Shown: positions 20,401-62,625 of the stretch, in pieces
Layout: the number at the start of each line of letters is the position of its first letter
How positions within the stretch are numbered: position 1 is the first letter of the stretch
Assembly (NCBI GenBank): GCA_041651535.1
Contig: JBAZIZ010000002.1
Location: 82,059 to 146,058, forward strand
Source: Patescibacteria group bacterium
GTDB lineage: Bacteria > Patescibacteriota > Patescibacteriia > Magasanikbacterales > UBA922
DNA length: 64,000 bases
Direction: 5' to 3'
The notes under the pieces: model-generated
Databases searched by the model: none
Seen by the model: the letters and a program-made list of their open reading frames with translations, nothing else
Told to the model about the DNA's origin: nothing
Program-made: the position numbers and the translations under genes

Positions 20401-23400
20401 GCAGAGCAGTCACTACACCTGCTGTAGTTGTAGCTGGAGCATAAATTTCAAAATGTAAATCAGAAATTTCAGCAATCGCTTCATTTGAATAACTAGAAAA
20501 TAATTCACTATTATTTGCAGTTTCTCCGATATGAGCTCTGACTCGATATTTATAGGTATTTGAAGAAGTTGAAGAAACAGTATGTAAATAAGTTCTGATA
20601 TTTTGTCCAGTTTGATCGTTGCCAGAATCTATTTCATTCCACGAACCACTATTTATTGATTCTTCTATTCTAAATCCGCTTTCAAACAAAGAATTATCCA
20701 CCCAACTTATTTGAACTTGGGTTTCATTTACTATTGCAGAAATTACAGAAGATGGAGCAACTGGAGTTGTATATTCATAAATAGAATAAGAATCATCAGA
20801 ATAAATTCCATCACTAGTTTTTGCTTTGACATTATATAAAAATCTGTTATTTGTTGTTATTTGGTAAGTATCACTATATGGTGAAGAAACAGAATAAAAA
20901 GAATTTGATTCATTACTTGTAAAATAATAATCACTACGGAAAATTCTATGTTCATTTGTAATTCCAGTTTGTGAAGTATAATAAACTGAAAATTGGCTGG
21001 AACTTATTCTTTTAGCATAAACATTTATTGGGGCATCAGGTTTTGTAAAATGATAATTAACTTCTGTTGCCCAATCAGAATAACCAATTGAATTAAATCC
21101 TCTAACTCGATATTTTATTTTACTATCTAACGAAACAGAATAATCTCGTGTATTATGAATATTAGCTGAGGTTGTAGTAGCTAAAGACCAATCACCTTCA
21201 GCACAACTAGCTCCAGAACTTGCTAAAACACATTTTTGAATTTCATAACCTGTTTCTACAACTGAATTATCACTCCAACCGATACTGAAATAGGATCCTT
21301 CTTCATCAGAATTCAAAGATGATGCCACACCACTTGGTTTATTTGGAATACCAATCACAGTTAAATAAATTTCACCATTTGCTGAACCGTTATTTACATA
21401 AAGATAAACTGTATTTCTGTCATTTATATTTGATAAAGTCACACTACCTTCCCAAATTCCATCATCAGTAAAATCAGCTTCCGCAATTCCAACCGGACTA
21501 ATGTCACCAATACTAGAACTTATATAAGTATTACCAAGCACAGCAGTTGTCGTATTTAAATATTCATCAAAAGCAGTAACACTTAAAGTAAAAGGAATTG
21601 TTGAAGTCACGGTAGACTGTTGGCTAGAAATAGTAAAACTATCAACTGATGCTGGATCAACTGAGACTCGAAGTTGATAAGAATTATTTTCTGCAGTTGA
21701 ATATGCTAATGTATCGGCATCAATATTATAAGAACCAACTGCTGGTAAAAACATATTTATTTCTGCTTCTCCATTTATAAAATTGATTGAAGTTATTGAA
21801 CCAAAATCAATTTGTTCACCATTAAAATTAATAACTGTTGGCTCAACTCCAGTAATTGATGAAGATGCTCCAGAAAAATAAACATTTTTTTCACCATTAT
21901 AATCACTGACAATATTTCCTCCGCTATCTTTTAAAGCCAAAGTAACTGTGGTTGTAGTTCCGGCTGTAGTTGTAATATCATTTAACGGAGAAAATTCAAA
22001 ATGATAACTTTGTGGTGAAAATACTTCTGTATATTCAGAAAATACTTCTGGAGCAAAAGTGTTTCCAGCAATATGAGATCGAACTCTAAATTGATAATCA
22101 TTGTTTAAATCTACATCAACTAAATCATAAGTTGTAATATTTGCTCCAACAGTATTAGTACTAGTAGTTATTTCACTCCATCCCCCACCATTTATTGAAA
22201 CTTCAATTCTAAATCCATCTTCATAATTTGAATCATCGTCCCAACTTAAACTAATTACAGTAGAGGTACTAAAAATTGCTGCTTGATTTATTGGTTTATT
22301 TGGTTGAGTATAAACATATTCTGTTCCACCAACATAACTTGAATACAAAGCTCCGTTACGCACTGTAGCTGAAATAGCTGAACGCATTTTGAAACGATAA
22401 GCATTATCAGGAGTAGAACTTGCAAAAGAAAAACCAGTCATATCAGCACCAACAGTTGTAATACCATTATTATAAATAGGAGTAAAAACACTAGAAGAAG
22501 CTACAGCATATTCAAGTAAATAACCTGATTCATAAAGTGCGTTATCAGTCCAAACAAATGAAATAGTATTTGATGTTGCTTCAGAAGCATAAAAAGCAGA
22601 AGGTGCTGCTGGTGAAGTAAATTCATAAGCTGAATATACATCACTAGAAATCAAACTTTCTGGAGATGGAGTTTCTGAATGAGAAACATATTTATAACGA
22701 TTATTAGCTAACAAACTTGCAGTGTCCGCATAAGGAGAAGAAGATGACTTACCTAAAAAATTAAAAGTTGAAGAATCACAACCTGCACTATCACAACGAG
22801 AAAAAACATGAGTATTTATAACATTAGCATTGTCTGTAAAATACAAATTAAATCTATTGTCATTTACATAAGTCGCATAAAAATTTGTCGGATAATCTGG
22901 TGTAGTATAATGAATTAAATTATCACTAGCTCCATAAGAAGAAACGATACTACCTGACGCAATTATTTGATACATATAACGACGATCAGCTTGTGGAGCA
23001 TCAAGCGGATTATTTGTGGCATTATCTACAAAACTTTGTGTATTAGTGGAAAGTGTCGCAATAGTTACCCATGTGCCTGGCAAACCTGAACCAGTATCTG
23101 TTTTTTTCTGAACTAAATAACCTGTTTCAATAGTACTTCTGTCTTGCCAAGTAATTTCAAATTCATTATCACTAATATAAGAAACTGCAACTGAACCAGG
23201 TGTGTTTGGTCTACCATTAAATAAAAATGAATCACTACCATTTGCTGAACCATTTACAGCCGTAATTACTACTGTTGGATTTTCATAAATATCAGTAACT
23301 GTTATATTACCTGCCCAAATTCCATCATCAGTAAAATTTGTAGCACTAATTATTGCTGGATTTATAGTTCCAGTTAAAACAGAATTTACATAAAGAGAAA

Positions 23401-26400
23401 GATTTGTATTTCCAGAAACACTCAAAGTATTATTATAATATGTGTCTAAAGCATAAACAGTGATCATTGTTGAGGAATTATAATTTATAGTTGCTGGAGC
23501 ATCAATCAAAAATCTATTCAAAGAATTTCCCACAACTGTAACTCCAAGAGAATAGCTATTATCAGCATTAGTTGAATAAAAATTATCTGTCACTTCTAAA
23601 ACAGCGTTTTCTGCTCGATATAAAATTAAATTACAAGAAGCAACACCGTTTGTAAAAGTAATTGTAGTTGTATTACCAAAAACAATTGGGCTATTATTTT
23701 TATCACTACAAGTTGGTACTATACCATTTACAGAAGAAGATGCTCCACTAAAAAATAATTCCTTATCACCAGACCAAAAAGTAGAAGTATTACCATTTAA
23801 ATCTTTTAAAATAATAGAAATAGTTTGTGAATTTCCAGCAATCTGACTACTATTACCTTTTATTTCATAATGAAAATCAGTTGATAAAACTTGTGAGCCG
23901 GCGCTATCACCACTATATAATTCAGAATTATTATCAGTTGCTGAAATGTAAGCTCGAACTTTAAATTGTAAATCATTTTGACTTGTTGGTGAAGAAAATA
24001 AATAAGTTTTTACATTTTGTCCGACTGTGGCTCCAGATATTACTGGTTCAAAATTTGAACCACCATCATAACTTACCTGAATTTCAAAACCATTTTCATA
24101 AGTTGAATTATCTTTCCAAGATAAAAACCATTGATTTGAACTAACTTGATAAAATTTTAAATCTGATGGTGTAGCTGGAGCTGTATATTCATAAGCTGAA
24201 TAAGCAAATGTGGAAGAAACATTAATAATTTCAGTTGCTGGAGCATCTGGAGGAACTATTGCTTTTACTCGATAACGATATCTACTATTACCTGACAAAC
24301 TTGTATCCAAAGTAGAAGTTCCATAAAGAGAAGAAGAAACACTAGAAAAAATATTACTAGCGCAAGAAATTCCCACACATCTATCAAGAGAAAAATAATC
24401 ACTTACTGCTGAATTATCTGTAAAAGTTAAATCAAATTTTAATGGTGAAGAATTATAAGTCGCGAGTAAATTACTTGGAGTACCAGGAACAGTATAATGA
24501 GCTACTGGATCACTGCCATAAGAAACTGAATAACCAACTGAATTAAAAGATCTAACACGATATTTATATCTTTCATTGCTTTGTGGAGGATCAATAATGT
24601 TATTTGCTACATTATCAATAAAACTATTGGTAGCTTGGGTTGTCGTTGCAATTGCTACCCAATTATTTCCAAAACCACTTCCTGTATCAGTATCTCTTTC
24701 TACCACAAAACCACTAGCAACTCCGCCAGAAGTATCACTCCAAGTTATTCTAAAAGAATTTAACGCAAAATAACTTGCAGCAACACCAGAAGGGGCAGTG
24801 GGAATTCCAACAGCTGACAAAAATACACTGCTTGTTGTAATGTTCCCATCATAATCATTATAATAATCAATTCTCAAAGTTTCTAAATTTGTTACGTTAT
24901 TAATCGTAAAATAAGTTTCTGCTAAACCATCATCAGTAAATTCACTAGATGAAACAATTGTTGGGCTAATAGACGCAAAAGTATCAACTGTGCTAGTGAC
25001 TGAAACTTGTGTGTCACTATTTACATAATTTGTTATATTTCCAAAAGCATCTTTAGAAATACTATCAATCGTAAAAGGAATACCAGAGATAACATTTGCT
25101 GATGATGATAAAATAAATTCATTTAAAATTTGAGAACCTACTGTCACTATTAAAGCATAATCATTGGAACCAGAAGTATTAAAATTATTTCCCGAAACAT
25201 CTATTTGAACTGTCTCATTTTTATAAAGTTTAAGAGTCGTTGTCGCTTCCCCATTTATAAAATTTAAAGTGGTAGTAGAACCAAAATTTCTATTATTTTC
25301 AAAGATATCTTTTGCTGTCGGACGATCAGAATATGGACTATTGTTTGCTCCATAAAAAATAATATCGTAATTTCCATTATAGGTACTACTGACTGAACCA
25401 AATTCATCAATCAAAAATATAGAAATAACCAAATCTTCTCCGGCAGTTACACTAGCAGAAGAAGCTCCTGATTTTCTCACTTCATAATGAGGAGGCGCAG
25501 TGACAAAAGTAAAATTTATATTATTACCACTATCGACACAACCATTAATACATAAAACTGCCGAACTATTGAAATTTACTATATCTTTGACATCCAAAAA
25601 TTCTACTGCTCTAGCGCCAGCAAAATCTATATTTGCTTGAGTACCACTGACTGTAGAATGTAAGCTGAGTAAATTGTTTGGAATTCCAGATAAATTTGCC
25701 GAACCTTCGATTTTTATATCTGAGCCAGCAGTAACATATAAAATTTGAGAGGAAGTAACAGTTTTTGTTAAATCATTGAAAACGATAAATCCACCGATAG
25801 TTTGAACTTCACCATTTAAAATCACTAAACCAGAATTAGCATCAAAAATACCTGGAGATAACATCAAAATATTTCCACCTACATATAAAGTAGTAGAAGG
25901 AGCGATAAAATTTCCATTACTACCTTCGAGATTATTATAAATAGAAAAAGAATCCGTAGCTTCATACAAAGGATTAACACTGACCAAATCAGAAATTTCA
26001 CTGACAGGTAAAACACGATAATAAAAAGCTACATCGTCTAAAATACCACTGAAATAATACTGTCCATCTATACGACTTCCTAATCTAGTCAAAGAAAAAG
26101 GAGTAAGTCCAGTAGAAGAAAGACATTGTTCTACTAAAATACCATCACGATAAATTTTCCAATCAACATTACTACCAGTAACATTTATTGTCGAAGTATA
26201 ATGATGCCAACCAGTAGTAAGATTTGTATTACAAGTAATTTGATTAGAAGAAGCATCTCTCAAAGAATTATACAATGTTCCACCAATGTTACTAAAAAAA
26301 TAATCATAAACAGAACCACCAGCAATCGGGACCTGAGTGTTTGAAAGATTAGAATAATTTATCCAAGCAGACACAGAAAATGTTTTATCCAATTCACCAT

Positions 26401-29400
26401 GACTTGCTGAAACATAATCATCTACTCCATCAAAACTTAATCCAAAATTATTTTTTCCAGCTACCCAAGTAGGAGCTAAACTACCAGCGCCTAAAGTCCC
26501 ATGTCTTCCGTTGCCAGATAAATCATTGATTGTGTTTCCACTTCCTTCATCCATGTTCCAATAACTAAGTAGCCCAGATTTTAAATTTCCGGCTAACTTT
26601 TTAACATCTTCAGCTTTGATCGCTTTATTATAAATTTTTACTTCATCTAGAACACCTTTATAAGCACGAGCGCTAGAATAAGCAGAATATCCAAAATATA
26701 AATTACTGGATGCACAAGTATATTTAGACCAAGTGTAGCTACCAGCCAAAACACCGTCAATATACAGACTCATATATCTACCATCATAAGTACCGACCAT
26801 ATGATGCCAATTATTATCAGTTACAACTCCTTTTATGAGACTATAATATCCCACTCCCCAACCACCGCTGTTATCTCCTACTGTATAAGTAATAGTTTTT
26901 GCTGTTTTTTCTTTCAACCCAATAGCCCAACCTGCCAAACCATAATCAGGACCAAATTTTTCAATAAGTGTTGGGTAATCATTTGCTTGTGTACCAGCTT
27001 TCATCCAAAATTCTACGGAAAAATTAGCTGTACAAAAATAATTACTAGCTCCAAAATTTACAAAATCACTACCATCAAAAGAAACAGCTGAGCCAGATTT
27101 TCCACTTGTCCAAGTCGGCGCTGAACCACCAGTACCAAAAACTCCATTCATGCCATTACCTGATTGATCATAAACTGTAGTTCCATTACCTTCGTCCATA
27201 CTCCAATAAGCAATCAAATTATCATTCATATCCCCGACTGTATTAAAAATATCATCACCATCTGTAAAATTTATTTTTAAATTATAATAATAAGGAAATA
27301 AAGTATCATAAAAAGTAGCTAAGCCATCATTATTTCCCACATAAGAAACAGTACCAGAATCAGTATCATTTACTAAATTTGTATATTCATTACCAGCGAC
27401 GTCTAGAGTACCTTCATTAAAAAAATTTGTTGGAGAAGATAAAATCAAAGTATTAGAATTTAAAAACAAAGTTCCATCTTCATTTATTTGTAAATAACCA
27501 TTTACTGTCAAACTAGAATTATTTAAACGAAAAATAGAACCTTCTATACCATTTATTATCATATTACCCACACTACTTGCTGATAAAATATTATAAGTAC
27601 CTGTGTTTGTCCTATAATATTCAACGATACTATTATTAGCAAATTGCGGATAACCGGTATTAAAAGAATAAGTAGCACCGCTCATAAGACGAAGTCTGGC
27701 ATCATTAGCAACTATAAAAGTTGATCCGCTTCCTGTCACTCTAAGACTTTTATCTGATAAATCAAAAGTACCAGAATTTAAAAGTAGATTTTTTGAATTA
27801 TCCATTGTCAAATCTGATAAAAGAAGCAAAGACCCGCCTGTTTTATTTATTCTAATTTCTCCATCAAGACTTGAAACTACGGTATTTAAATTTATATTTT
27901 GTTCATTATCTCCAGAAAAAGTAATAAGTGGTTGAATAAAACCATCAGTAATTTCTAAATTTCCTCTGAGATTTAAATTGGAAACAGTGTTATCTCCATA
28001 AATATATCCTTTACTGATCAAAGTATCACCATATATATTTACAGTATCACTACCAGCAATTTGTAGATAATAAGAATTGCTAGATTTATTGAGTTTAAAA
28101 TTATAAAAATTTATAGACGAAACTACATCTAAAGTCGTATAACTACTTCCTCTAAAATCTACCGTTCCAATCCCTGGATCAAAAATACCACCAGTATGAG
28201 TGAAATTATTATAAAAATAAGCATTACCTTGCGGGGCGTTGAAAATTCCACCAGACAAAGTAAAAAGAGAATTAAAATATAAATTATGAGATCCAAAAGT
28301 AGCAGTTCCATTTGAATGAGTGTAAGAACCAGCAAAATTCCAATTGGTATTAGTAGTGCTTAAATTTCCGCCGGATTGAAAAGAGGCTGTACTAAATTGC
28401 AATTGTCCACCTTGCCCAATGTAATGAGTATTTCCAGCAGTAGTTTCAATAGTATAAGCATAGGTAGTGGCACTTGGACCATAAACAGTGGTAGATGCCC
28501 CAGCAAAAACAAGACGAGGTAAGTATGTTCCACCAGCAATAGACAATGTTTGCGATCCTGTGCCTGCTAAAAGTAATTGCACTATATTTCTCGCACTTGG
28601 AGTTATATATGTTGATTCTACCACTACATCACCTCTTGCTTCCAAAGCTGAATAAGTATTTCCTCCATAAAGCCAGCCGATATTTTTAAGCGTAGTTGTC
28701 CCAGTGACAACTATCCTATCATTATCATCTATTCGTAAATGATAACCAGCATATGATTTATTTAAAACAAAATTATTGAAAGTGACTGAATTTCCAGTAG
28801 TTGCTACTACATTGATATTCTGATCAACAGTAGATCCCACAAAATGCACTGTTCCACTTCCTCCACCAAAGACACCGCCAGTATGAGTGAAATTATTATA
28901 AAAATAAGCATTGCCTTGTGGGGCGTTGAAAATTCCACCAGACAAAGTAAAAAGAGAATTAAAATATAAATTATGAGATCCAAAAGTAGCAGTTCCATTT
29001 GAATGAGTGTAAGAACCAGCAAAATTCCAATTGGTATTAGTAGTGCTTAAATTTCCGCCGGATTGAAAAGAGGCTGTACTAAATTGCAATTGTCCACCTT
29101 GCCCAATGTAATGAGTATTTCCAGCAGTAGTTTCAATAGTATAAGCATAGGTAGTGGCACTTGGACCATAAACAGTGGTAGATGCCCCAGCAAAAACAAG
29201 ACGAGGTAAGTATGTTCCACCAGCAATAGACAATGTTTGCGATCCTGTGCCTGCTAAAAGTAATTGCACTGTATTTCTCGCACTTGGAGTTATATATGTT
29301 GATTCTACCACTACATCACCTCTTGCTTCCAAAGCTGAATAAGTATTTCCTCCATAAAGCCAGCCGACATTTTTAAGCGTAGTTGTCCCAGTGACAACTA

Positions 29401-31474
29401 TCCTATCATTATCATCTATTCGTAAATAATAACTAGCATATGATTTATTTAAAACAAAATTATTGAAAGTGACTGAATTTCCAGTAGTTGCTACTACATT
29501 GATATTCTGATCAACAGTAGATCCCGCAAAATGCACTGTTCCACTTCCTCCATCAAAAACACCACCAGTATGCGTGAAATTATGATAAAAATAGGCGTTG
29601 CCCTCTGAAGAATAAAAAGTCCCACCAGATAAAGTAAAAACATTACTAAAATAAATATTACCTTCAGGGGCATTGAATATTCCACCAGACAAAGTAAAAG
29701 TAGAAGCAAAAGTGATATTTCCTAAGCCAAAAGTAGAAATACCGTTTGAATGAGTATAAGTACTACCAAAATACCAATTTGTATTGGTAGTAGTCAGGTT
29801 TCCGCCTGATTGTAGTGAAGGACCACTCATCTGAAGTTGTCCACCTTGTCCGATATAGTGAGTATTTCCTGATATTGTCTCAAAAGTATAAGCATAGGCA
29901 GCCGCTTCTGGACCATAAACTGTGGTAGATACTCCAGAAAAAATCAATCGTGGTATATAAGTAGCACTGGCAATATTGACTGTTTGTGGTCCTGTACCAG
30001 CAATATTTAATCTAAAACTATTTCTTCCATAAGAATAATTATGGGTTGATTCTATCACCACATCACCTCTAGCTTCTAAATTTGAATTAGCATCACCACC
30101 ATATAAATAACCTCTTCTTAAAGTAGTAGTGCCATTAACTATCAGTTTGTCAGCCGAAGAAATTGTTAAATAATAACTAGTATCATTTTGATTTAAAATA
30201 AAATTATTGAATGTAACAGTATTTCCGCTAGAAGCTGCAATATTAAAAGTTGTATTAATTCCTCTAAAATGTGCAGTTCCAATTCCTCCATCAAAGATAC
30301 CTCCAGTGTGAGTAAAATTACTATCAAAATATGTATTTGTCTCAGAAGCGGTAAATGTTCCTCCAGATAAAGTAAAAGTAGAATAAAAAATAACATTTCC
30401 CACACCAAAAGTAGAAGTTCCATTGGAGTGAGTATAAGAACTACCAAAATACCAATTAGTATTCGTAGTTGTCAGATTGCCCCCAGACTGAAGTGATGGA
30501 CCACTCATCTGCAACTGTCCACCTTGTCCAATATAGTGAGTATTTCCTGATATTGTCTCAAAAGTATAAGCATAGGCAGCCGCTTCTGGACCATAAACTG
30601 TGGTAGATACTCCAGAAAAAATCAATCGTGGTATATAAGTAGCACTGGCAATATTGACTGTTTGTGGTCCTGTACCAGCAATATTTAATCTAAAACTATT
30701 TCTTCCATAAGAATAATTATGGGTTGATTCTATCACCACATCACCTCTAGCTTCTAAATTTGAATTAGCATCACCACCATATAAATAACCTCTTCTTAAA
30801 GTAGTAGTGCCATTAACTATCAGTTTGTCAGCCGAAGAAATTGTTAAATAATAACTAGTATCATTTTGATTTAAAATAAAATTATTGAATGTAACAGTAT
30901 TTCCGCTAGAAGCTGCAATATTAAAAGTTGTATTAATTCCTCTAAAATGTGCAGTTCCAATTCCTCCATCAAAGATACCTCCAGTGTGAGTAAAATTACT
31001 ATCAAAATATGTTGTTCCTTGTGAAGCATTGAAAGTACCACCAGATAAAGTAAAAGTAGAAGCAAAAGAAATATTTCCTAAACCACCATTGAAAACACCG
31101 TTTGATTGGGAAAAAGTACCACTAAGAGAAAAAGTATAACCGCTTTCACGAGTAATAGTTCCAGTGTAACCAGAAGAAATTGTAAAACTATTTAAATTGA
31201 CATTGGCATCTATAGAACAATCAGCTGTAGCTGTACCATTAAAAACAACAAGATCGCCAGTTCCAGGAGTACCTACAGGAGACCAGTTATTACTATTTGT
31301 CCAGAGTCCATCTCCTCCACTGTTTGTCCAAGTGTAAGTTGTGCCCGCAGCAAAAGATTGCCAAGTTACAAAAGCACCAATAAATACTAAAAACAAAAAA
31401 AATGTCCAAGGGTGTTTGGAAAAAAAGCTTAATGATTTTGTTAAGTTTTTCAATGAAAAACGTTTCTTTTTCAT
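14480..31474 (-). CDS. Giant (5664 aa) cell-surface protein: signal peptide, 4-5 tandem ~226-229-aa Gly/Thr/Asn-rich beta-repeats, two LamG/concanavalin-like lectin domains, ~5 large FN3/Ig-like repeat modules, CarbopepD_reg-like domain, C-terminal TM anchor
   Basis: Uninterrupted 17-kb ORF; N-term MKKKRF...FLFLVFIGAFVTWQSFA; LamG-like 'LIAYWSMDEGNGTTVYDQSGNGMNGV...NWHHMVGTYDG' twice; repeated 'TAPSxV/L...W.D.S..E.GF.IE' FN3-like units; C-term WKKYLDWKTVLPIAFSLFLLYYY. Confidence 0.85.
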   Translation of the reverse strand: MKKKRFSLKNLTKSLSFFSKHPWTFFLFLVFIGAFVTWQSFAAGTTYTWTNSGGDGLWTNSNNWSPVGTPGTGDLVVFNGTATADCSIDANVNLNSFTISSGYTGTITRESGYTFSLSGTFSQSNGVFNGGLGNISFASTFTLSGGTFNASQGTTYFDSNFTHTGGIFDGGIGTAHFRGINTTFNIAASSGNTVTFNNFILNQNDTSYYLTISSADKLIVNGTTTLRRGYLYGGDANSNLEARGDVVIESTHNYSYGRNSFRLNIAGTGPQTVNIASATYIPRLIFSGVSTTVYGPEAAAYAYTFETISGNTHYIGQGGQLQMSGPSLQSGGNLTTTNTNWYFGSSYTHSNGTSTFGVGNVIFYSTFTLSGGTFTASETNTYFDSNFTHTGGIFDGGIGTAHFRGINTTFNIAASSGNTVTFNNFILNQNDTSYYLTISSADKLIVNGTTTLRRGYLYGGDANSNLEARGDVVIESTHNYSYGRNSFRLNIAGTGPQTVNIASATYIPRLIFSGVSTTVYGPEAAAYAYTFETISGNTHYIGQGGQLQMSGPSLQSGGNLTTTNTNWYFGSTYTHSNGISTFGLGNITFASTFTLSGGIFNAPEGNIYFSNVFTLSGGTFYSSEGNAYFYHNFTHTGGVFDGGSGTVHFAGSTVDQNINVVATTGNSVTFNNFVLNKSYASYYLRIDDNDRIVVTGTTTLKNVGWLYGGNTYSALEARGDVVVESTYITPSARNTVQLLLAGTGSQTLSIAGGTYLPRLVFAGASTTVYGPSATTYAYTIETTAGNTHYIGQGGQLQFSTASFQSGGNLSTTNTNWNFAGSYTHSNGTATFGSHNLYFNSLFTLSGGIFNAPQGNAYFYNNFTHTGGVFGGGSGTVHFVGSTVDQNINVVATTGNSVTFNNFVLNKSYAGYHLRIDDNDRIVVTGTTTLKNIGWLYGGNTYSALEARGDVVVESTYITPSARNIVQLLLAGTGSQTLSIAGGTYLPRLVFAGASTTVYGPSATTYAYTIETTAGNTHYIGQGGQLQFSTASFQSGGNLSTTNTNWNFAGSYTHSNGTATFGSHNLYFNSLFTLSGGIFNAPQGNAYFYNNFTHTGGIFDPGIGTVDFRGSSYTTLDVVSSINFYNFKLNKSSNSYYLQIAGSDTVNIYGDTLISKGYIYGDNTVSNLNLRGNLEITDGFIQPLITFSGDNEQNINLNTVVSSLDGEIRINKTGGSLLLLSDLTMDNSKNLLLNSGTFDLSDKSLRVTGSGSTFIVANDARLRLMSGATYSFNTGYPQFANNSIVEYYRTNTGTYNILSASSVGNMIINGIEGSIFRLNNSSLTVNGYLQINEDGTLFLNSNTLILSSPTNFFNEGTLDVAGNEYTNLVNDTDSGTVSYVGNNDGLATFYDTLFPYYYNLKINFTDGDDIFNTVGDMNDNLIAYWSMDEGNGTTVYDQSGNGMNGVFGTGGSAPTWTSGKSGSAVSFDGSDFVNFGASNYFCTANFSVEFWMKAGTQANDYPTLIEKFGPDYGLAGWAIGLKEKTAKTITYTVGDNSGGWGVGYYSLIKGVVTDNNWHHMVGTYDGRYMSLYIDGVLAGSYTWSKYTCASSNLYFGYSAYSSARAYKGVLDEVKIYNKAIKAEDVKKLAGNLKSGLLSYWNMDEGSGNTINDLSGNGRHGTLGAGSLAPTWVAGKNNFGLSFDGVDDYVSASHGELDKTFSVSAWINYSNLSNTQVPIAGGSVYDYFFSNIGGTLYNSLRDASSNQITCNTNLTTGWHHYTSTINVTGSNVDWKIYRDGILVEQCLSSTGLTPFSLTRLGSRIDGQYYFSGILDDVAFYYRVLPVSEISDLVSVNPLYEATDSFSIYNNLEGSNGNFIAPSTTLYVGGNILMLSPGIFDANSGLVILNGEVQTIGGFIVFNDLTKTVTSSQILYVTAGSDIKIEGSANLSGIPNNLLSLHSTVSGTQANIDFAGARAVEFLDVKDIVNFNSSAVLCINGCVDSGNNINFTFVTAPPHYEVRKSGASSASVTAGEDLVISIFLIDEFGSVSSTYNGNYDIIFYGANNSPYSDRPTAKDIFENNRNFGSTTTLNFINGEATTTLKLYKNETVQIDVSGNNFNTSGSNDYALIVTVGSQILNEFILSSSANVISGIPFTIDSISKDAFGNITNYVNSDTQVSVTSTVDTFASISPTIVSSSEFTDDGLAETYFTINNVTNLETLRIDYYNDYDGNITTSSVFLSAVGIPTAPSGVAASYFALNSFRITWSDTSGGVASGFVVERDTDTGSGFGNNWVAIATTTQATNSFIDNVANNIIDPPQSNERYKYRVRSFNSVGYSVSYGSDPVAHYTVPGTPSNLLATYNSSPLKFDLTFTDNSAVSDYFSLDRCVGISCASNIFSSVSSSLYGTSTLDTSLSGNSRYRYRVKAIVPPDAPATEIINVSSTFAYSAYEYTAPATPSDLKFYQVSSNQWFLSWKDNSTYENGFEIQVSYDGGSNFEPVISGATVGQNVKTYLFSSPTSQNDLQFKVRAYISATDNNSELYSGDSAGSQVLSTDFHYEIKGNSSQIAGNSQTISIILKDLNGNTSTFWSGDKELFFSGASSSVNGIVPTCSDKNNSPIVFGNTTTITFTNGVASCNLILYRAENAVLEVTDNFYSTNADNSYSLGVTVVGNSLNRFLIDAPATINYNSSTMITVYALDTYYNNTLSVSGNTNLSLYVNSVLTGTINPAIISATNFTDDGIWAGNITVTDIYENPTVVITAVNGSANGSDSFLFNGRPNTPGSVAVSYISDNEFEITWQDRSTIETGYLVQKKTDTGSGLPGTWVTIATLSTNTQSFVDNATNNPLDAPQADRRYMYQIIASGSIVSSYGASDNLIHYTTPDYPTNFYATYVNDNRFNLYFTDNANVINTHVFSRCDSAGCDSSTFNFLGKSSSSPYADTASLLANNRYKYVSHSETPSPESLISSDVYSAYEFTSPAAPSAFYASEATSNTISFVWTDNALYESGYLLEYAVASSSVFTPIYNNGITTVGADMTGFSFASSTPDNAYRFKMRSAISATVRNGALYSSYVGGTEYVYTQPNKPINQAAIFSTSTVISLSWDDDSNYEDGFRIEVSINGGGWSEITTSTNTVGANITTYDLVDVDLNNDYQFRVRSHIAGNTFAPEVFSEYTEVFSPQSYHFEFSPLNDITTTAGTTTTVTLALKDSGGNIVSDYNGEKNVYFSGASSSITGVEPTVINFNGEQIDFGSITSINFINGEAEINMFLPAVGSYNIDADTLAYSTAENNSYQLRVSVDPASVDSFTISSQQSTVTSTIPFTLSVTAFDEYLNTTTAVLGNTYISSSIGDISPVGIAEADFTDDGIWEGSVTLSNINDRNTVYLYVNNGSANGEIYLTVIGIPNKPSGVASSLNSDEEGSYFSIGWSDNSVVETGYEIQKCVLASSGASCAEGDWSLATTTSANIHNTRDYSVSLDSKIKYRVRGFNSIGYSDWATEVNYHFTKPDAPINVYAKRISSSQFSVYYTSQTGITNEHRIFRSDYYFTSNESNSFYSVSSPYSDTYQITTNNRFLYNVKAKTSDGIYSDDSYSIYEYTTPVAPSSVISAIVNETQVQISWVDNSLFESGFRIEESINSGSWNEIDSGNDQTGQNIRTYLHTVSSTSSNTYKYRVRAHIGETANNSELFSSYSNEAIAEISDLHFEIYAPATTTAGVVTALQIALRDVNGNNASYFTGNRILKFISDGTQPTLYCSDKDGNNIMFGENTTVSFINGAATCSTTLYNAVTTTIDVYDDSFSSTSSPAYDLDLKVEPNVARKFSVSAPTQAVSTVPSTVRLIAQDFWNNTTTLIFNTTTVSVSTGSVSPLQILDSSFENGIATISLVISSIIERPAVNVEFRGFDSYSSTTIYGNAYITVLGVPNAPTSVSSVRNSNESITLSWSDNSTIESGYAIERQVDEGSGFGSWIFVAQVNTNIHSYTDYSTVANRRYKYRVRTIGSFANSDYAEDPINSLGGIYTTPTAPTFISPVRYSDNRFDITFVDNALVTNYFDLKRCDGAACSTNSFSAITTTPILLIPSQTVTGTINYTDNLNIDVNNRYRYAFTVKPPASSGSTVSAVAYSNYEYTKPAAPSGVNAIKTEENIIYIYWDDNSSYEDGFRIEYSDDSAEHFTEVTPGTNTVGANVESYNFTIPSTTLTYLFRIKSHVPATASNVELLSDFDQTQTSETHLVVTGSNTQNVGESQTITLTIRDGENNIITDYDGDKSIILTGPSNSLTGVQATCTNKSGNPVNIGLITTINFVDGVGQCNFTPYRAETVLLRATDGLHTSYTHPSYNLNLTAVAGTLNNFLVAIPATSSIDLAFETIIYARDIYNNITKQVSGNTSLTASVGSLSVNSIAQSDFTDDGIWYGNLSINNLYDLNNVILTAQNSGASGYDSIEIIAAPNLPLNVLASYISDNQINISWTDNSSAEDYYVVEKRSDTTGSGFGSWTTLATTSPNAVILSDINTAGNKRYEYRVYSGNIYGNSDYVYSNVVYTSLPAPVITTSTVLSANSMVWDWTSSALFSTEFRLHFTSSNHLDYININSSSDSFTVNDLTPNTGYQIVLYTWRSDRGYSPASNTSTLLYTFAALPTDIQVSTNTDETLTLNWNQNSNPSSTEYKVKNITTGDESEWITNNSWTDNNLDCETSYDYIIKARNHDNVETDWTVTSTLETGLCVMPSIPNSFSAEYISDSQIDLSWLSTDIYSKSFVIEKRVNYGSGFNSWSVLATTTNANSSLSDTVVSVNSAYEYRIRGVNKIGESENLASAVIYTGLLAPTINTPSAILDNSITFNWINNSNFAEEFVLEFVEGEHEDIENINVTNTSFIVEDLLPNTIYSVKVYAANSSRGRSEASATSTAVYTLAEIPDLITATSTTQNSMTLNWSAGDNPSGTEYYIEEINSTTTNSGWTTTTVWNISNLSCGVNYSFRIKTRNFENVESGWSANNSFSTESCPSFGGDGSSSFNYVRPSTDNLGIKINNGALYTNNKNVQLNLSAGNDVSDMAIANDISFDQIPQESFAEVKDWILSGGDGLKKVYVRFFGRVGGLSSETYFNSIILDTTPPSISFTDYKSSYSIHEKIKISGLTEANSLIFVKIDGAGEKQISADNEGKWNLDLNYLPFGKYSLIVKAKDQAQNLGKENSLIVNVDNENIINDEEKENEEDFIEEEKNTEETDLWLKAKELGVEILGEITDLPLIKDIVDKISDWLKEPETETVNIPLVDAVPQITPIAFEIRWNLFPVKKFILAPLPNEVRLLAEKFPEFSTTLTETGVARMTDMIKMKNINFVLPSLSSTILNRVAEINIPVISSTGSVKYGDIKITNLENSSSSFNIDLDPSKLDTGEFFSYSLPLAKLSEEEKKQIPTEIMFVKNALADLDLNTKVAINENGRPIQKINTISGTTVELIVKPQAKVNSVKGYVVYKNSGIVQAKSAVTAGSNLNKILSDIFAGEAVFAETAEKEIPVEERLVLKEFEYTDPDSDGIYTAFVDIPVKDGEYEIITVFDYIDSELGRKQIRLLTVVDPEGYVYEKVGEKEMRVKGSVVSLYRKNETSGEFELWNATKYQQINPQTVGVTGDYSFLVTPGEYYLEAKAKGYKNYRGEYFTVDINDAIFENIQLYPAATWKKYLDWKTVLPIAFSLFLLYYYNHKNKKIKT
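28190..31150. repeat. Intragenic tandem direct repeats: two perfect 678-bp units (~29790-31145) and two near-perfect 687-bp units (~28190-29563), plus a diverged fifth unit
   Basis: Identical strings recur with periods of 678 bp ('ccactcatct' at 29823 and 30501) and 687 bp ('gtatgagtga' at 28194 and 28881; 'gtatgcgtga' at 29568); mirrored as identical 226-aa protein repeats. Confidence 0.85.
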
Positions 31475-31711
31475 TTTAAATTATTTTTGTTTTTTACAAG
31501 TAAATTATAACATTTTTTTGATTTATTGCCAAACTTTTTTTACTATTTACTTGTTGATAAACCAAGCAAAAATTAATTTTAAAAAAATATTCAAAAAAAT
31601 TTACTTTTTCTTTTAATTTTTATGTTTATTTTTTTGTTTTTGTTTCCCTTCCCTACTGGAAGGTGGGGTTATTTTAAATTCAACAATTAAAAGAATTAGA
31701 AACATTTAAGA

Positions 31712-31917
31712 GATTTCTTCAACCCGATTAAATCGGGATTACGAAATTACAAAAGATTATGTTAGTATTTTTTAAATCATTTTTTTAATAAAATTATCCA
31801 AATAAATAAAAACGTTTTAAAAATAATTGCACTCTCACTTTGTCATATCGTAGCCCCGACGAAACGTCGGGATGGAGACGAAGAATCGCTTAAACAATGA
31901 ATTATTAATTATTTTAA
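31712..31917. repeat. MITE-like structured repeat unit A (imperfect inverted halves each carrying a GC hairpin: CCCGAT-taa-ATCGGG / CCCCGACG-aaa-CGTCGGG)
   Basis: Left half 'GATTTCTTCAACCCGATTAAATCGGGATTACGAAATTACAAAAG' and right half 'ACTTTGTCATATCGTAGCCCCGACGAAACGTCGGGATGGAGACGAAGAATC' are reverse-complement-related; same architecture recurs in units B and C. Confidence 0.65.
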
Positions 31918-31998: not shown

Positions 31999-32301
31999 AT
32001 GAAAAAAATTTACAGATTTTTTATTTATATCTTAGCTAGTGATTCAGGAACACTTTATGTTGGTTTGACTAATAATATATATAGAAGAATAGAAGAACAT
32101 AAAACTAAAGCAAATAAAAAAAGTTTTTCTAAAAAATATAATTGTTATAAATTAGTTTATTTTGAAGAACATAAGTATGTAAATAACGCAATAAATAGAG
32201 AGAAAGAGATAAAAGACTGGAACAGAAAGAAAAAAGAAGAACTTACCAAAAAATTTAACCCACATTGGATTGATTTATACGATAAAATAGATTTAATTTA
32301 G
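31999..32301 (+). CDS. GIY-YIG nuclease superfamily protein (YhbQ/UPF0213-like, 100 aa)
   Basis: 'YRFFIYILASDSGTLYVGLTNNIYRRIEEHKTK...YKLVYFEEH...AINREKEIKDW' matches the GIY-(10-11)-YVG, R, E and N motifs of small GIY-YIG proteins. Confidence 0.75.
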   Translation: MKKIYRFFIYILASDSGTLYVGLTNNIYRRIEEHKTKANKKSFSKKYNCYKLVYFEEHKYVNNAINREKEIKDWNRKKKEELTKKFNPHWIDLYDKIDLI

Positions 32302-32557: not shown

Positions 32558-32820
32558 ACCTGCCTGCCGGTAGGCAGGGGGATTCTTCGCCCCCGACGTC
32601 ACGTCGGAGGACTCAGAATGACAAAAAAGTAAGTTTTGACTATTTTAATTTGTTAATTTTTTAGTGTTTAATTTTTGTTTTAAATTTATTTTTAAAATAA
32701 AAAAACATCCTGATAAGTTTAAACAGACTGAAAAACAAACATCCATTCACTTTTGTCATCCCGAACCCCGACTTAACGTCGGGGGGATCCCTTAAATAGT
32801 GAATTATTAATTATTTTAAA
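32558..32820. repeat. MITE-like structured repeat unit C (diverged copy; extra GC hairpin CCTGCC-tgccggta-GGCAGG at its start)
   Basis: 'GGGGGATTCTTCGCCCCCGACGTCACGTCGGAGGACTCAGAATGACAAAAAAG' ... 'CACTTTTGTCATCCCGAACCCCGACTTAACGTCGGGGGGATCCC'; tail 'GAATTATTAATTATTTTAAA' shared with unit A. Confidence 0.6.
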
Positions 32821-60082: not shown

Positions 60083-60198
60083 AAAAACACAAAAGGCTCT
60101 CCATGCAATGGTGATCTCTTACGAGACCCAGTAACCTTTCGGTTAAAGACTGGATAAACAATACCAAAGATGAGAGAGCCATCTCTATGTTTATCCAG
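60083..60198 (-). ncRNA. Candidate structured leader/sRNA with pseudoknot-like interleaved stems and terminal U-tract (attenuator or riboswitch-like) upstream of the Ltp gene
   Basis: GC-rich island; GGCTCTC(60095)/GAGAGCC(60174) and CTGGATAAACA(60150)/TGTTTATCCAG(60188) are interleaved; nested CCAGT-AACC-tttc-GGTT-ACTGG; on the minus strand the closing helix is followed by UUUUGUGUUUUU. Confidence 0.3.
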
Positions 60199-60441
60199 TT
60201 TTAGACCATGCCCACAAAGCGAGTTTAGGTCTTTAAATTGTTGCTTATATTCTAGCAAAATATTTTTTAAAAAGCAAGGTAAAAAACAAAAAAACACCTG
60301 TAAAAAAAGTATTTTATTTATTATGGACAAATTATAATTATTATATTGACAATAAAAATTATATTGTGTATAGTTTATATACAAACGGCTTCGGCCTCCG
60401 AGACCCTGTTTTCCTCTTATGGATCACAGGGATCGTTTTTT

Positions 60442-60726
60442 TTATAAAAAGTCTTTTATCTTTTTTCTAACTTCATTAAATTCTTCTTTTGAAATTGTTC
60501 TTACTTTTCTTAATAATCTCTTAGAACTGATAAGTCTTAATTGGGATAAAATTAAATATGACGTTTCATTTTTATATTTTACAGGAAAATAATATTTCTT
60601 ATTATTAGTTTTATCTTGACTGGTCATCGGAATAATCCACATTATTTCCAGATTAAATTGTTTTATTATAAGAACAGGTCTTTCAAAAGTTTCGTTTTTC
60701 CCATTTTGTTCAAAGCCAATATTCAT
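60442..60726 (-). CDS. MazF/PemK-family endoribonuclease toxin (N-terminally short)
   Basis: 'GFEQNGKNETFERPVLIIKQ' aligns to the MazF 'VGSEQGGVRPVLVIQ' segment; 'ILSQLRLISSKRL' = MazF 'LxQxRTIxxxRL'; C-terminal 'ISKEEFNEVRKKIKDFL'. Confidence 0.6.
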   Translation of the reverse strand: MNIGFEQNGKNETFERPVLIIKQFNLEIMWIIPMTSQDKTNNKKYYFPVKYKNETSYLILSQLRLISSKRLLRKVRTISKEEFNEVRKKIKDFL

Positions 60727-61024: not shown

Positions 61025-61975
61025 ATGATTCTTTCAATAGCTTTATTAATTTTATCTTTGCTAACTGTAATAAAAAGTGCTGATTACGCAATTCATTATT
61101 CAGGAAAAATTGCCAGAAGTTTAAATCTTTCTAAATATATAGTTGGTTTTTTAATTGTGGCCGTAATTTCAATTTTACCTGAAACTTTAGTATCAGTAAA
61201 TTCAGCTTTAAAAGGTGTACCTGCTTTTGGTTTAGGTACACTTTATGGATCAAATATTGCTGATTTAACATTAGTTTTTGCTTTAGTGGTTTTATTATCA
61301 AGTAGAAACCTAAAAATTGAAAGTAAAATAATAAAAAATCGTTTTTTTTATATAGGACTTGTAGCTATACCAATTTTATTAGGTTTGAATGGACATTATT
61401 CACGTCTAGAAGGAATTATTTTAATAATATCTGGCCTGAGTTTTTATTTTTATATTTTAAACAAAAATCATTGTTCTCCAAAAGATATTAAAGAAAAAAT
61501 CAATTTATCTGATTTAACATTATTGATTATTAGCATGATTGGTTTGATTTTTGGATCACATTTTACTGTAAAATATGGGATTACTTTTGCAAATAGTTTA
61601 AAAATTAATCCAGTTTTAATCGGTATGTTTGTTGTGGGGGTTGGAACAACCTTACCTGAATTATTTTTTTCTGTCAGAGCCGCAAAAAATCACAATGATG
61701 ATTTGGCTTTAGGAGATATTTTAGGGACTGTTATGGCTGATGCTACCATAGTTGTTGGAATTATAGCTGTTATTATACCTTTTGCTTTTAATCCAAAAAT
61801 AATTTATATAACTGGTACATTTATGTTTTTGGCAATAAATTTGCTTTTTCATTTTATAAAAACTGAAAAACTTTTAACAAAAAAAGAAGCAGTTTTGCTA
61901 TTATTTTTTTATTTTATTTTTGTCTTCACTGAATTAGCCATAAACGATCAACGTTTTATAGAATTATTTAAATAA
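61025..61975 (+). CDS. Ca2+/Na+ antiporter (CaCA family, YrbG-like)
   Basis: 10 TM; duplicated alpha-repeat motifs 'GTLYGSNIADLTLVFALVVL' and 'LGDILGTVMADATIVVGIIAVI'. Confidence 0.6.
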   Translation: MILSIALLILSLLTVIKSADYAIHYSGKIARSLNLSKYIVGFLIVAVISILPETLVSVNSALKGVPAFGLGTLYGSNIADLTLVFALVVLLSSRNLKIESKIIKNRFFYIGLVAIPILLGLNGHYSRLEGIILIISGLSFYFYILNKNHCSPKDIKEKINLSDLTLLIISMIGLIFGSHFTVKYGITFANSLKINPVLIGMFVVGVGTTLPELFFSVRAAKNHNDDLALGDILGTVMADATIVVGIIAVIIPFAFNPKIIYITGTFMFLAINLLFHFIKTEKLLTKKEAVLLLFFYFIFVFTELAINDQRFIELFK

Positions 61976-61978
61976 AAA

Positions 61979-62002
61979 AACACTCAAATAAAAAAGTGTT
62001 TT
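61979..62002 (+). terminator. Terminator for CaCA gene (AACACT-caaataaaa-AGTGTT + T4)
   Basis: Hairpin + TTTTG immediately after the stop and abutting the tRNA 3' end. Confidence 0.45.
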
Positions 62003-62003
62003 G

Positions 62004-62075
62004 TGCTCCCGCCAGGAATCGAACCTGGATTTTTGGTTCCGCAAACCAATGTCCTATCCGTTGAACGACAGGAGC
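62004..62075 (-). tRNA. tRNA with anticodon GCG as read (would decode CGY = Arg); needs tRNAscan confirmation
   Basis: Minus-strand GCTCCTG-TC-GTTC-AACGGATA-GGAC-A-TTGGT-TTGCGGA-ACCAA-AAAT-CCAGG-TTCGATT-CCTGG-CGGGAGC-A: full cloverleaf with TTCGATT T-loop; anticodon loop U32-U33-G34-C35-G36-G37-A38. Confidence 0.65.
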
Positions 62076-62078
62076 TTT

Positions 62079-62342
62079 TTAAATTATCATTTTTATTTTT
62101 CCATCATTAATCATTTTTTGTAAATAATCTTTTCTTTTTAGTTTTTTAATTTTTCTCTCAATTTTTCTAGCCACTTCTAAATTATTATATTCTTGAACTA
62201 ACACTAATTCAATATTTTTCATGTTTCTAGTTGTTTGAGTATGGCCATTTTTATGTTGTTTCAATCTCCTATCTATATTTGATGTGCTTCCAACATAAAA
62301 TCTGTTATCATTACTTTTTAATATATATACATATCCCCCCAT
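62079..62342 (-). CDS. GIY-YIG nuclease superfamily protein (YhbQ-like, 87 aa)
   Basis: 'GYVYILKSNDNRFYVGSTSNIDRRLKQHKNG...' GIY-(10)-YVG + R + 'VLVQEY...E..IK' motifs; starts 21 nt after the tRNA-fragment duplicate and ends 3 nt before the intact tRNA. Confidence 0.75.
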   Translation of the reverse strand: MGGYVYILKSNDNRFYVGSTSNIDRRLKQHKNGHTQTTRNMKNIELVLVQEYNNLEVARKIERKIKKLKRKDYLQKMINDGKIKMII

Positions 62343-62365
62343 ATATTTTATATATTATTTTAATT

Positions 62366-62444
62366 TCCTATCCGCCCCGATGTTTCGCTTTAGCGAAAAT
62401 CGGAACTCCGACTCCACAGGACGTCGGAGTTGAACGACAGGAGC
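62366..62444 (-). other. Duplicated 5' fragment of the adjacent tRNA (positions 1-16 + D-arm 3' part GGATAGGA) interrupted by a 55-nt two-hairpin insert
   Basis: 'GCTCCTGTCGTTCAAC' (identical to tRNA nt 1-16) + 'TCCGACGTCCTGTGGAGTCGGAG' (9-bp hairpin) + 'TTCCGATTTTCGCTAAAGCGAAACATCGGGGC' (hairpin) + 'GGATAGGA' (= tRNA nt 17-24); 3' 'TTGAACGACAGGAGCTTTTTAAATT' repeated at 62061 and 62431. Confidence 0.6.
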
Positions 62445-62625
62445 TTTTTAAATTCAAAAAAATTATATATTAAAATTATTAAAAAGTCAACCGTATACAA
62501 TCAATTATGTCTGTCAGCAGGCAAGAAGTCGAAAATTTATTGTTTAAAATCTTTTTATTTTTTAATTTTTACTTTTTAATTTTCTTTTGCTATAATAAAA
62601 AGTATAGTAATCACCAGTTTAATAT

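Follow-up and report, generated by a model that had tools for sequence, protein, structure and literature searches.

A small GIY-YIG nuclease gene with paired hairpins and a split tRNA gene as a candidate tRNA-resident mobile element of Patescibacteria

Why should a very small nuclease gene lie between an intact transfer RNA (tRNA) gene and a second, partial copy of the 5' end of the same tRNA? The question is raised by a locus near one end of a stretch of 64,000 nucleotides (nt), here called the window, from a Patescibacteria group bacterium (GenBank assembly GCA_041651535.1, contig JBAZIZ010000002.1, positions 82,059 to 146,058). There, at 62003-62490 on the minus strand, a gene for a GIY-YIG protein of 87 amino acids (aa) abuts a tRNA-Arg(GCG) and is preceded by a fragment of that tRNA into which two hairpins are set. 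The reading favoured here, to which a probability of roughly 0.6 is given, is that a mobile cassette of nuclease gene and hairpins breaks a resident tRNA gene in two and furnishes a copy to replace it, and that this tRNA-resident selfish element is common in Patescibacteria; any single mechanistic step is held with much less confidence than the overall picture. The element is widespread and apparently previously undescribed, a full-text literature search, of incomplete coverage and so no proof of absence, having returned no account of a unit of GIY-YIG gene, tRNA fragment and hairpins.

All of the parts named in a preliminary description of the locus were found on the minus strand, and their layout was borne out by ARAGORN, Rfam, Pfam and a repeat search. 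The intact tRNA-Arg(GCG), termed T1, extends over 62003-62075 according to ARAGORN and over 62004-62075 according to Rfam (tRNA family, 61.5 bits), and its acceptor stem is paired at 7 of 7 positions. Three nt separate its first nucleotide from the stop codon of the 87-aa open reading frame (ORF; 62079-62342, minus strand), whose single domain occupies residues 3-71 (Pfam PF01541, E=5.5e-16). On the 5' side of the ATG is an AT-rich spacer of 19 nt (62343-62361), present as described but one nt shorter than reported, in which nothing resembles a Shine-Dalgarno sequence; a relative, L091, whose protein is 79% identical, has the last 18 nt of the spacer unchanged. Next comes fragment B, CGGATAGGAAATT (62362-62374), which matches tRNA nt 16-28 (62048-62060) at 12 of 13 positions, so that the tRNA fragment reaches nt 28 with one mismatch rather than ending at nt 24 as first supposed. 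Further upstream follow hairpin 2, TTCCGAT-[TTTCGCtaaaGCGAAA]-CATCGGGG (62375-62405), with a nested hairpin in its loop; hairpin 1, CTCCGACG-tcctgtgga-GTCGGAG (62406-62429); fragment A, GCTCCTGTCGTTCAA (62430-62444), equal to nt 1-15 of T1; and a leader copy, AATTTAAAAA (62445-62454), equal to the 10 nt that precede the intact tRNA. The leader and tRNA nt 1-16 make up an exact direct repeat in two copies, as described, of 26 nt (62060-62085 and 62429-62454) instead of 25. The downstream copy spans the last codon of the ORF, its stop codon, the 3 nt and tRNA nt 1-16, and the original 25-mer has exactly 2 occurrences as against 0 expected from 100 shuffles.

The region's best promoter-like sequence, TTGACT-17-TATAAT (62462-62490, minus strand; 11 of 12 consensus positions), ends 8 nt upstream of the repeat. 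A further such sequence, TTGAAT-17-TATAAT (62184-62212, minus strand; 10 of 12), is situated within the GIY-YIG ORF and could permit transcription of the tRNA independently of the upstream promoter. Fragment and hairpins together are predicted to fold into a three-way junction, with energies of -21.1 kcal/mol as DNA (z -4.35) and -38.4 kcal/mol as RNA (z -4.46); 0 of 200 shuffles were as good in either case. An intron-containing tRNA spanning the region was found by neither ARAGORN nor Rfam, and Rfam, searched at gathering and E-value thresholds, detected only the tRNA. In the window as a whole, which has 28.6% GC, hairpins of the form CCGA[CT]..[AG]TCGG are restricted to the vicinity of its two GIY-YIG genes, with the sole exception of a chance match in a gene at 4794.

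Taken alone, the window, with its 5'-only fragment and identical repeats, is compatible with simple decay of a tandem tRNA duplicate that was struck by an unrelated palindrome, resembling a miniature inverted-repeat transposable element (MITE), with an unrelated small ORF lying by chance between the two copies. Relatives of the 87-aa gene make this hardly credible, because about 60 independent loci repeat this order of parts, fragment and tRNA always enclose a member of one protein family and have the hairpin at the same nucleotide, and two complete tandem tRNAs lacking the ORF, the arrangement that decay would predict in relatives, were never seen at such sites.

The family was surveyed in 80 genomic loci encoding relatives (L001-L080), drawn from many projects and lineages. 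Coupling to tRNA was scored in the 72 loci, from Patescibacteria genomes, with enough downstream sequence, over a search window of -15 to +20 nt from the stop codon, and a tRNA on the same strand begins -10 to +18 nt from the stop in 61 of them, where chance would give about 0.6% per locus. At the -10 spacing, the ORF's stop codon is the tRNA's own U8-A9-G10. The coupled tRNAs belong to 14 anticodon classes, with Arg(GCG) the commonest partner (19/61), followed by Arg(TCT), Thr, Phe, Val, Ala, His, Asn and Ile. Most bacteria read CGU and CGC via an ACG (inosine) tRNA, and the GCG anticodon for tRNA-Arg may be a peculiarity of the lineage. The breadth of this coupling, together with the presence/absence polymorphisms described below, upholds the earlier proposal that a homing-type or other mobile insertion is aimed at tRNA genes.

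The hairpins are as regular as the tRNA. Of 79 loci, 63 have a strict double hairpin, with the consensus xxCCGACG-loop-GTCGGxx followed by xxCCGAC-loop-CGTCGGxx, within the 200 nt that precede the ATG, and 73 have one CCGAC hairpin or more there; the strict motif was absent from all 3950 shuffled controls and present in 4 of 1576 windows taken elsewhere. The flanks of the module are in most loci nt 1-15 (left) and nt 16 to about 25 (right) of the tRNA that follows the ORF. Its position is accordingly 15|16 in most loci, the window copy being typical, but one protein clade, found at Phe, Ile, Thr and Asn tRNAs, has it at 10|11, and one tRNA-His locus within the anticodon loop. The hairpin insert is no secondary event in an insertion scar; the unit has it as a near-universal part at a specific position. 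Additional single hairpins of this type are seen in the 5' fragment after nt 7 (L112), nt 9 (L030) and nt 2 (L079), and the dead 5' fragment apparently continues to accumulate them.

The stems indicate what kind of motif these hairpins are. The outer pairs vary as C-G, A-T, T-A and G-C, and the core changes from CCGAC/GTCGG to CCGAT/ATCGG; hairpin 1 of the window (type xxCCGACG..GTCGGxx) exchanges its outer C-G for T-A in L091, and hairpin 2 (type xxCCGAC..CGTCGGxx) has the compensatory core CCGAT/ATCGG. Loops often contain nested hairpins of like kind. Stem mismatches of the G.T and A.C types are about equally frequent (29 versus 27) and the module reads alike on both strands, which argues for a DNA-level motif and not an RNA-only structure; the equal counts rule out the latter as sole explanation. 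Cross-pairing among the four hairpin arms was likewise ruled out, since outer pairs covary within and not between hairpins.

The origin of the tRNA fragment can be seen in copies that retain a tRNA relic downstream of the intact tRNA. In the tRNA-His locus L045, fragment nt 1-7 (GTGGGCG) pair at 7 of 7 positions with the relic's CGCCCAC, and the intact tRNA between them has the acceptor strands GTGCCCG/CGGGCAC. In the tRNA-Arg(TCT) locus L112, GCCCTCG likewise pairs with the relic CGAGGGC at 7 of 7 positions, around an intact tRNA (CCCCTCG/CGAGGGG) that is enclosed by inverted repeats. Pairing is 6 of 7 in L061 (His; fragment GCGGCTA, relic TAGCAGC, intact GTGCCCG/CGGGCAC) and in L064 (Thr(TGT); fragment GCCGCTG, relic AGGCGGC, intact GCCGGAG/CTCCGGC). 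Because fragment nt 1-7 in L045 and L112 find their pairing partner in the relic downstream and not in the intact tRNA, fragment and relic are the two halves of one resident gene, and the intact tRNA is a distinct allele in between. Across loci, differences between fragment and intact tRNA number 33 in nt 1-7 and 5 in nt 8-15, and those between the resident and the new tRNA-Arg(TCT) of L103 are distributed likewise.

L103 belongs to a set of ten loci (L102-L111) of one species that have the GIY-YIG protein in common without change and agree at 100% in their flanks, yet occur as two alleles. In the short allele (L102, L108, L109 and L111), an intact tRNA-Arg(TCT), whose acceptor is GCCCTCG/CGAGGGC, comes after the ORF. 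In the long allele (L103-L107 and L110), that same tRNA-Arg(TCT) is split by a double hairpin at 15|16 and by a payload of 109 nt at 21|22. The payload is itself an intact tRNA-Arg(TCT), distinct from the resident one (GCCTCTG/CGGAGGC) and enclosed by inverted repeats, and the rest of the old tRNA follows it. The long allele is taken to be derived because precise loss of two separate segments is unlikely. In L092, from another species, near-identical inverted-repeat arms hold a tRNA-Arg(GCG) inside a resident tRNA-Arg(GCG). The insertion of Arg(TCT) into Arg(TCT) and of Arg(GCG) into Arg(GCG) points to like-for-like replacement.

These resolved comparators (L045, L112, and L103 as against L102) bear on two explanations that had been offered for the repeat in the window. 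The repeat is probably no classical target-site duplication; the alternative of a tRNA copy disrupted in its D-loop was partly right, in that the fragment of the resolved comparators is the 5' part of a split resident tRNA. A fuller version of the former explanation would have the element consist of hairpins and ORF only, a staggered cut or repair synthesis duplicating a target of about 35-40 nt from the leader to nt ~28, and the intact tRNA being the original host gene and not cargo. It accounts for the agreement of fragment and adjacent tRNA over nt 1-15 in about half of the loci, as also in the window, and for a similarity that often reaches about 11 nt into the leader. It leaves unexplained, however, the placement of the hairpins inside the left copy and not at a junction, the relics that pair with the upstream fragment (L045, L112), and the distinct tRNA allele between halves (L103, L092, L112); in L016, moreover, the duplicated leader is coding sequence of the ORF, at least 23 nt long, for which repeated invasion is a better fit than target-site duplication. 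We consider duplication in place unlikely.

Mobility of the unit is indicated by polymorphism and by nested or shortened forms. L040 and L049 share a cluster of tRNA-Arg(TCT), tRNA-Val(TAC) and rluD, with the unit at Arg in L040 and at Val in L049, and in each the other tRNA of the cluster stays uninterrupted; presence/absence polymorphism, as expected of homing genes, is thus found for the unit (L040 versus L049) and for the cassette of hairpins plus tRNA (L102 versus L103). Tandem units occur in L015, L038 and L064, one of the ORFs being cut down to its last ~25-40 nt, and L069 has two ORF-less fragment-hairpin units in tandem, arrangements that look like repeated invasion followed by decay.

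Cassettes without an ORF, in which a hairpin module and a complete tRNA lie between inverted repeats, were observed in the long-allele contigs and in L092-L101. The ORF-less cassette is a non-autonomous, tRNA-carrying mobile unit. A second palindrome, CCTGCC..GGCAGG, forms the inverted-repeat arms around the cargo tRNAs of L103 (flanks of 1863-1934) and L092 (1840-1950); it is also found in the T-loop of a tRNA relic in L090 (~690-760) and, standing alone, at the second GIY-YIG locus of the window (32559-32578).

The same observations weigh on the idea of a domesticated operon, in which a host housekeeping or repair nuclease is co-transcribed with tRNAs and the hairpins are repetitive extragenic palindromic (REP)-like elements or a structured 5' leader controlling expression or processing of the mRNA-tRNA co-transcript. 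A conserved ORF with invariant GIY-YIG motif residues, a large family with no copies on viral contigs, and a strongly folding module between promoter-like site and ATG are all as such an operon would have them. But the tRNA partner varies, syntenic clusters carry the unit at different tRNAs, the insertion is polymorphic within a species, and there are tandem units with deleted ORFs as well as ORF-less cassettes of hairpins and tRNA. Hairpin modules are also present in dead tRNA copies 3' of the intact tRNA, the near-equal frequency of G.T and A.C in the stems speaks against RNA-only structure, and a leader role would explain neither the identity with the same tRNA nor the split genes. An operon of this type therefore seems quite improbable.

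Several observations count against the reading of a mobile cassette that splits and replaces tRNA genes. In L002, L034 and L078 the upstream fragment matches the intact tRNA and not the downstream relic, and for these loci gene conversion or repeated invasion must be invoked. The window fragment itself is identical to the intact tRNA, the 10-nt leader included, so that for the T1 of the window copy local duplication or gene conversion between the repeats is an equally good explanation. No empty orthologous site for the window locus was found among metagenome contigs with the neighbouring Na/Ca-exchanger protein as query; this search gave 9 loci of 27-68% identity, none of which adjoins a tRNA-Arg, RelA or GIY-YIG gene and which are thus uninformative on occupancy. 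All comparators are metagenome assemblies, and no relative of the 87-aa protein was found on viral contigs, as possible transfer vehicles. Finally, the link between nuclease and hairpins is associative in this subfamily, and L040 and L068, which have a common protein clade and locus, differ in hairpin type and position, which implies that hairpins turn over independently of the ORF. A strict co-evolution of nuclease and hairpins is weakened by these two loci.

Two relatives of the window locus suggest how its present form may have arisen. L090 (97% protein identity) has the same Na/Ca-exchanger neighbour and the same unit and hairpins, and in addition a 64-nt segment after the tRNA, absent from the window, that comprises a second T-arm and acceptor 3' strand, with the CCTGCC..GGCAGG hairpin in the T-loop of this relic. 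At the corresponding spot the window has a weak terminator-like hairpin, AACACT..AGTGTT followed by a T run (61972-62000, minus strand), which was read by eye, its G-C pairs being too few for the scan. The window form is the expected product of recombination between two GATTCCTGGCGGGAG repeats. L091 shares with the window the RelA/SpoT-like neighbour and hairpin 2, including the nested TTTCGC..GCGAAA, and has two tandem copies of the fragment. Comparators suggest that T1 is a replacement copy delivered with the element; by the window copy itself, T1 may have arrived with the ORF, the fragment may be a former intact copy that was re-invaded, or the repeats may have been homogenised by gene conversion.

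The protein at the centre of the unit is minimal. It has hundreds of close relatives of 86-91 aa, and a profile of the family recovers 550 clusters (50% identity) at E<=1e-10. The residues Y6, Y16, R26, H30 and E62, at GIY-YIG motif positions, are invariant in 40 homologues; the Pfam domain and the conserved Tyr, Tyr, Arg and Glu place the protein in the GIY-YIG superfamily. Among solved structures the family profile best matches the UPF0213 proteins 1zg2 (4.9e-11) and 1ywl (7e-8), and also SLX1 and I-TevI, and the sequence matches to Pfam and Protein Data Bank entries settle the predicted fold as GIY-YIG. A length of 87 aa accommodates the catalytic domain only, with no room for the separate DNA-binding domain of homing endonucleases. 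Many database members are 110-150 aa long, with the domain starting at about residue 30-60 (P0126-P0182, P0020, P0033); these are probably gene calls over-extended upstream through hairpin and tRNA fragment and not genuine N-terminal extensions.

A mechanism can be proposed for a unit that runs from promoter-like site, leader and first ~25-28 nt of a tRNA, through a CCGAC/GTCGG double hairpin in the D-loop (15|16), to the 87-aa gene, a complete tRNA of the same anticodon packed against the ORF and, in copies of younger age, the 3' part of the resident tRNA left as an orphan. The element would enter the D-arm of a resident tRNA gene and split it, and the cell would survive by means of the supplied intact tRNA of the same isoacceptor, on which the host would then depend and which would make the insertion tolerable. 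The captured tRNA promoter would drive expression of the element, and the tight linkage of ORF and tRNA would hinder clean loss of the nuclease gene. The hairpins may be the cognate DNA motifs of the nuclease, as SRM repeats are for the Ssn nucleases, and by analogy with Ssn (PMC11893778) the enzyme may recognise hairpins or the tRNA D-arm in single-stranded DNA (ssDNA). A break made in single-stranded, cloverleaf-prone tRNA DNA could stimulate recombination, the two halves of the split tRNA acting as portable homology arms; later, recombination between the 3' relic and its counterpart in the intact tRNA could remove the relic, producing the form found in the window, where T1 would have arrived together with the ORF. 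A junction at tRNA 7|8, suggested by downstream relics that begin with nt 8 and by the cutting site of SsnA about 9 nt on the 5' side of its hairpin, is a lead only: the step in identity there is mild, and the per-position identity profile is biased by the choice of register.

A more far-reaching form of this mechanism, which is possible but doubtful, would make the replacement resemble a gene drive. A minimal, hairpin-dependent GIY-YIG nuclease would put the hairpin module into the D-arm or anticodon loop and so inactivate the resident tRNA gene, leaving the copy welded to the nuclease gene as the only working one, with the halves as universal homology arms. The host could not then lose the element, its sole working tRNA being joined to the nuclease gene, and autonomous units (with ORF) and non-autonomous ones (hairpin and tRNA between inverted repeats) would move like-for-like between genomes. 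In a stronger form still, the tRNA-derived arms beside the hairpins would guide the nuclease by base pairing.

The latter idea can also be held by itself, as a nucleic-acid-guided nuclease in which arms of nt 1-15 and nt 16 to ~25, beside protein-binding hairpins in a transcript or in ssDNA, would pair with the complementary strand of tRNA genes and so direct an enzyme that has no DNA-binding domain. The arms do follow the adjacent tRNA over 14 anticodon classes, conservation is higher in nt 8-15 and 16-24 than in nt 1-7 and the leader, and the unit lies downstream of a promoter-like site; in addition, SsnA cuts with a hairpin built from two separate ssDNA strands, so that DNA-guided cleavage is possible in principle (PMC11893778). 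However, descent from a split tRNA gene explains arm identity without further assumption (L045, L112, L103), the D-arm is conserved among tRNAs in any case, and the conservation of nt 8-15 is partly imposed by the choice of register. In the predicted fold, furthermore, the arms are not free, since they close the junction by pairing with one another, and SsnA does not bind RNA (PMC11893778). Guidance by the arms is on this balance a long shot.

Among characterised systems, the closest analogue of the mobile cassette is provided by Ssn and its SRM repeats, that is, single-domain GIY-YIG ssDNA nucleases with hairpin repeats. The Ssn nucleases (SsnA of Neisseria meningitidis; cd10448) cut ssDNA a few nt 5' of hairpin repeats that flank their genes, and the resulting layout of repeat, gene and repeat was remarked by the authors to be like that of an insertion sequence (IS); tRNA is mentioned 0 times in the paper (Chenal et al. 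2025, PMC11893778), whose criterion for the family is cd10448 or a BLASTP E<1e-10 to SsnA of N. meningitidis. Both families are single-domain GIY-YIG proteins of ~90-100 aa without a DNA-binding domain, the 87-aa protein included, and short, oriented hairpin repeats accompany the gene in each. The GTCAT..hairpin..GAATC frame of the NTS/SRM repeats is found at the window's second GIY-YIG locus. In contrast to Ssn, the 87-aa family is hard-wired to tRNA genes and its unit includes a complete tRNA; its hairpins are paired as xxCCGACG..GTCGGxx and xxCCGAC..CGTCGGxx, stand inside the tRNA at fixed nucleotides, and lie on the 5' side of the gene only, whereas SRM repeats flank theirs; and its best matches among solved structures are the UPF0213 proteins.

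Free-standing GIY-YIG homing endonuclease genes, such as that of phage T4 SegB in the tRNA gene cluster, offer a further comparison. Seg proteins are larger, possess a separate DNA-binding region and cut the double-stranded DNA of co-infecting phage genomes, and the SegB system differs in having no hairpin module, no split gene and no replacement tRNA. What SegB has in common with the present family is a GIY-YIG domain, residence among tRNA genes and presence/absence polymorphism, and SegB-dependent segmental amplification of a tRNA gene has been reported (PMC2330249; PMC13096335). That amplification parallels the tandem units of the 87-aa family.

Integrative elements that target tRNA genes show a different set of likenesses, namely the tRNA target, flanking direct repeats of tRNA sequence and function kept by element-borne sequence. 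Such elements encode an integrase and usually duplicate the 3' end of the tRNA. They are many kb in length as compared to ~0.45 kb for the present unit, beside which no integrase gene was called, the adjoining genes being the Na/Ca-exchanger gene (Pfam) and the RelA/SpoT-like gene, the latter read from its translation and from the syntenic L091 gene with Pfam RelA_SpoT/HD_4. The repeat, moreover, covers the tRNA 5' end, the orphan is the 5' part, and in resolved comparators a whole tRNA is supplied.

Elements of the IS200/IS605 and REP/REP-associated tyrosine transposase types and MITEs resemble the unit in their hairpin DNA recognition motifs, nested or clustered insertions and ORF-less derivatives, as in the cassettes of L103 and L092. 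The enzyme here is a hydrolytic GIY-YIG nuclease, unlike the HUH transposases of the first two; the target, unlike that of any of these elements, is tRNA structure plus sequence; and the non-autonomous form, unlike a MITE, carries a functional tRNA gene between its inverted repeats. Within the same phylum, tRNA genes are also interrupted by group I introns, some with endonuclease genes, at anticodon position 35/36; GIY-YIG and hairpins are unmentioned in that study (PMC13011429). The present unit lies in the D-arm, Rfam finds no ribozyme in it, ARAGORN and Rfam find a contiguous complete tRNA beside it, and the interrupted copy is replaced by a second intact gene and not spliced.

The second GIY-YIG locus of the window (31.7-32.8 kb) had been assigned to the same hairpin-element family as the first. 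Its gene, of an Ssn-like type, encodes 100 aa (31999-32301, plus strand); it is flanked, between 31710 and 32792, by six repeats that occur in the two orientations and are built of TTTGTCAT, a CCGAC hairpin and GAAGAATC; the repeat at 31710-31755 has the variant TTTGTAAT. This layout resembles, in its sequence features, that of Ssn with SRM repeats. No strict match to the published SRM pattern (HGTCWY..hairpin..RNCYNB) occurs anywhere in the window. When relaxed, the pattern picks up one site within a gene at 22436 and two of the six repeats, the remaining repeats being recognised by the common TTTGTCAT start and by reading of the sequence. The presence of CCGAC hairpins in NTS/SRM-like repeats supports the link between both loci that had been proposed, inasmuch as the CCGAC..GTCGG core is common to them. 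The genes, however, with 33% identity between their products, are by sequence comparison of different subfamilies, and only the 87-aa one is coupled to tRNA.

If the favoured reading is true, the tRNA genes of very small Patescibacteria genomes would be a battleground for a selfish element of ~0.45 kb, which would solve the problem of insertion into an essential gene by bringing a replacement. Horizontal exchange would then move tRNA alleles along with a nuclease gene, with a bearing on how tRNA gene sets, tRNA-based phylogenies and "tRNA pseudogenes" are read. The partnership of single-domain GIY-YIG nuclease and hairpin known from Ssn would be extended to a second, differently wired family with fixed tRNA insertion points, which may have many natural nuclease-hairpin pairs to offer for ssDNA tools, and 5' fragments, hairpin modules and N-terminally over-extended ORF calls would become recognisable in annotation.

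Other features of the window are of separate interest. A tRNA-Thr(CGT) at 957-1028 on the minus strand is without a nearby GIY-YIG gene or CCGAC hairpin, so that not all tRNAs of this genome carry the unit. A full-length match to the LOOT RNA family RF03000 (70.9 bits, as against a gathering threshold of 46.4) lies at 60113-60231 on the minus strand and adjoins a PemK/MazF-like ORF (60442-60726, minus strand). A quarter of the window is taken up by a single ORF of 5664 aa (14480-31474, minus strand) with long internal repeats and an N-terminal signal-like segment.

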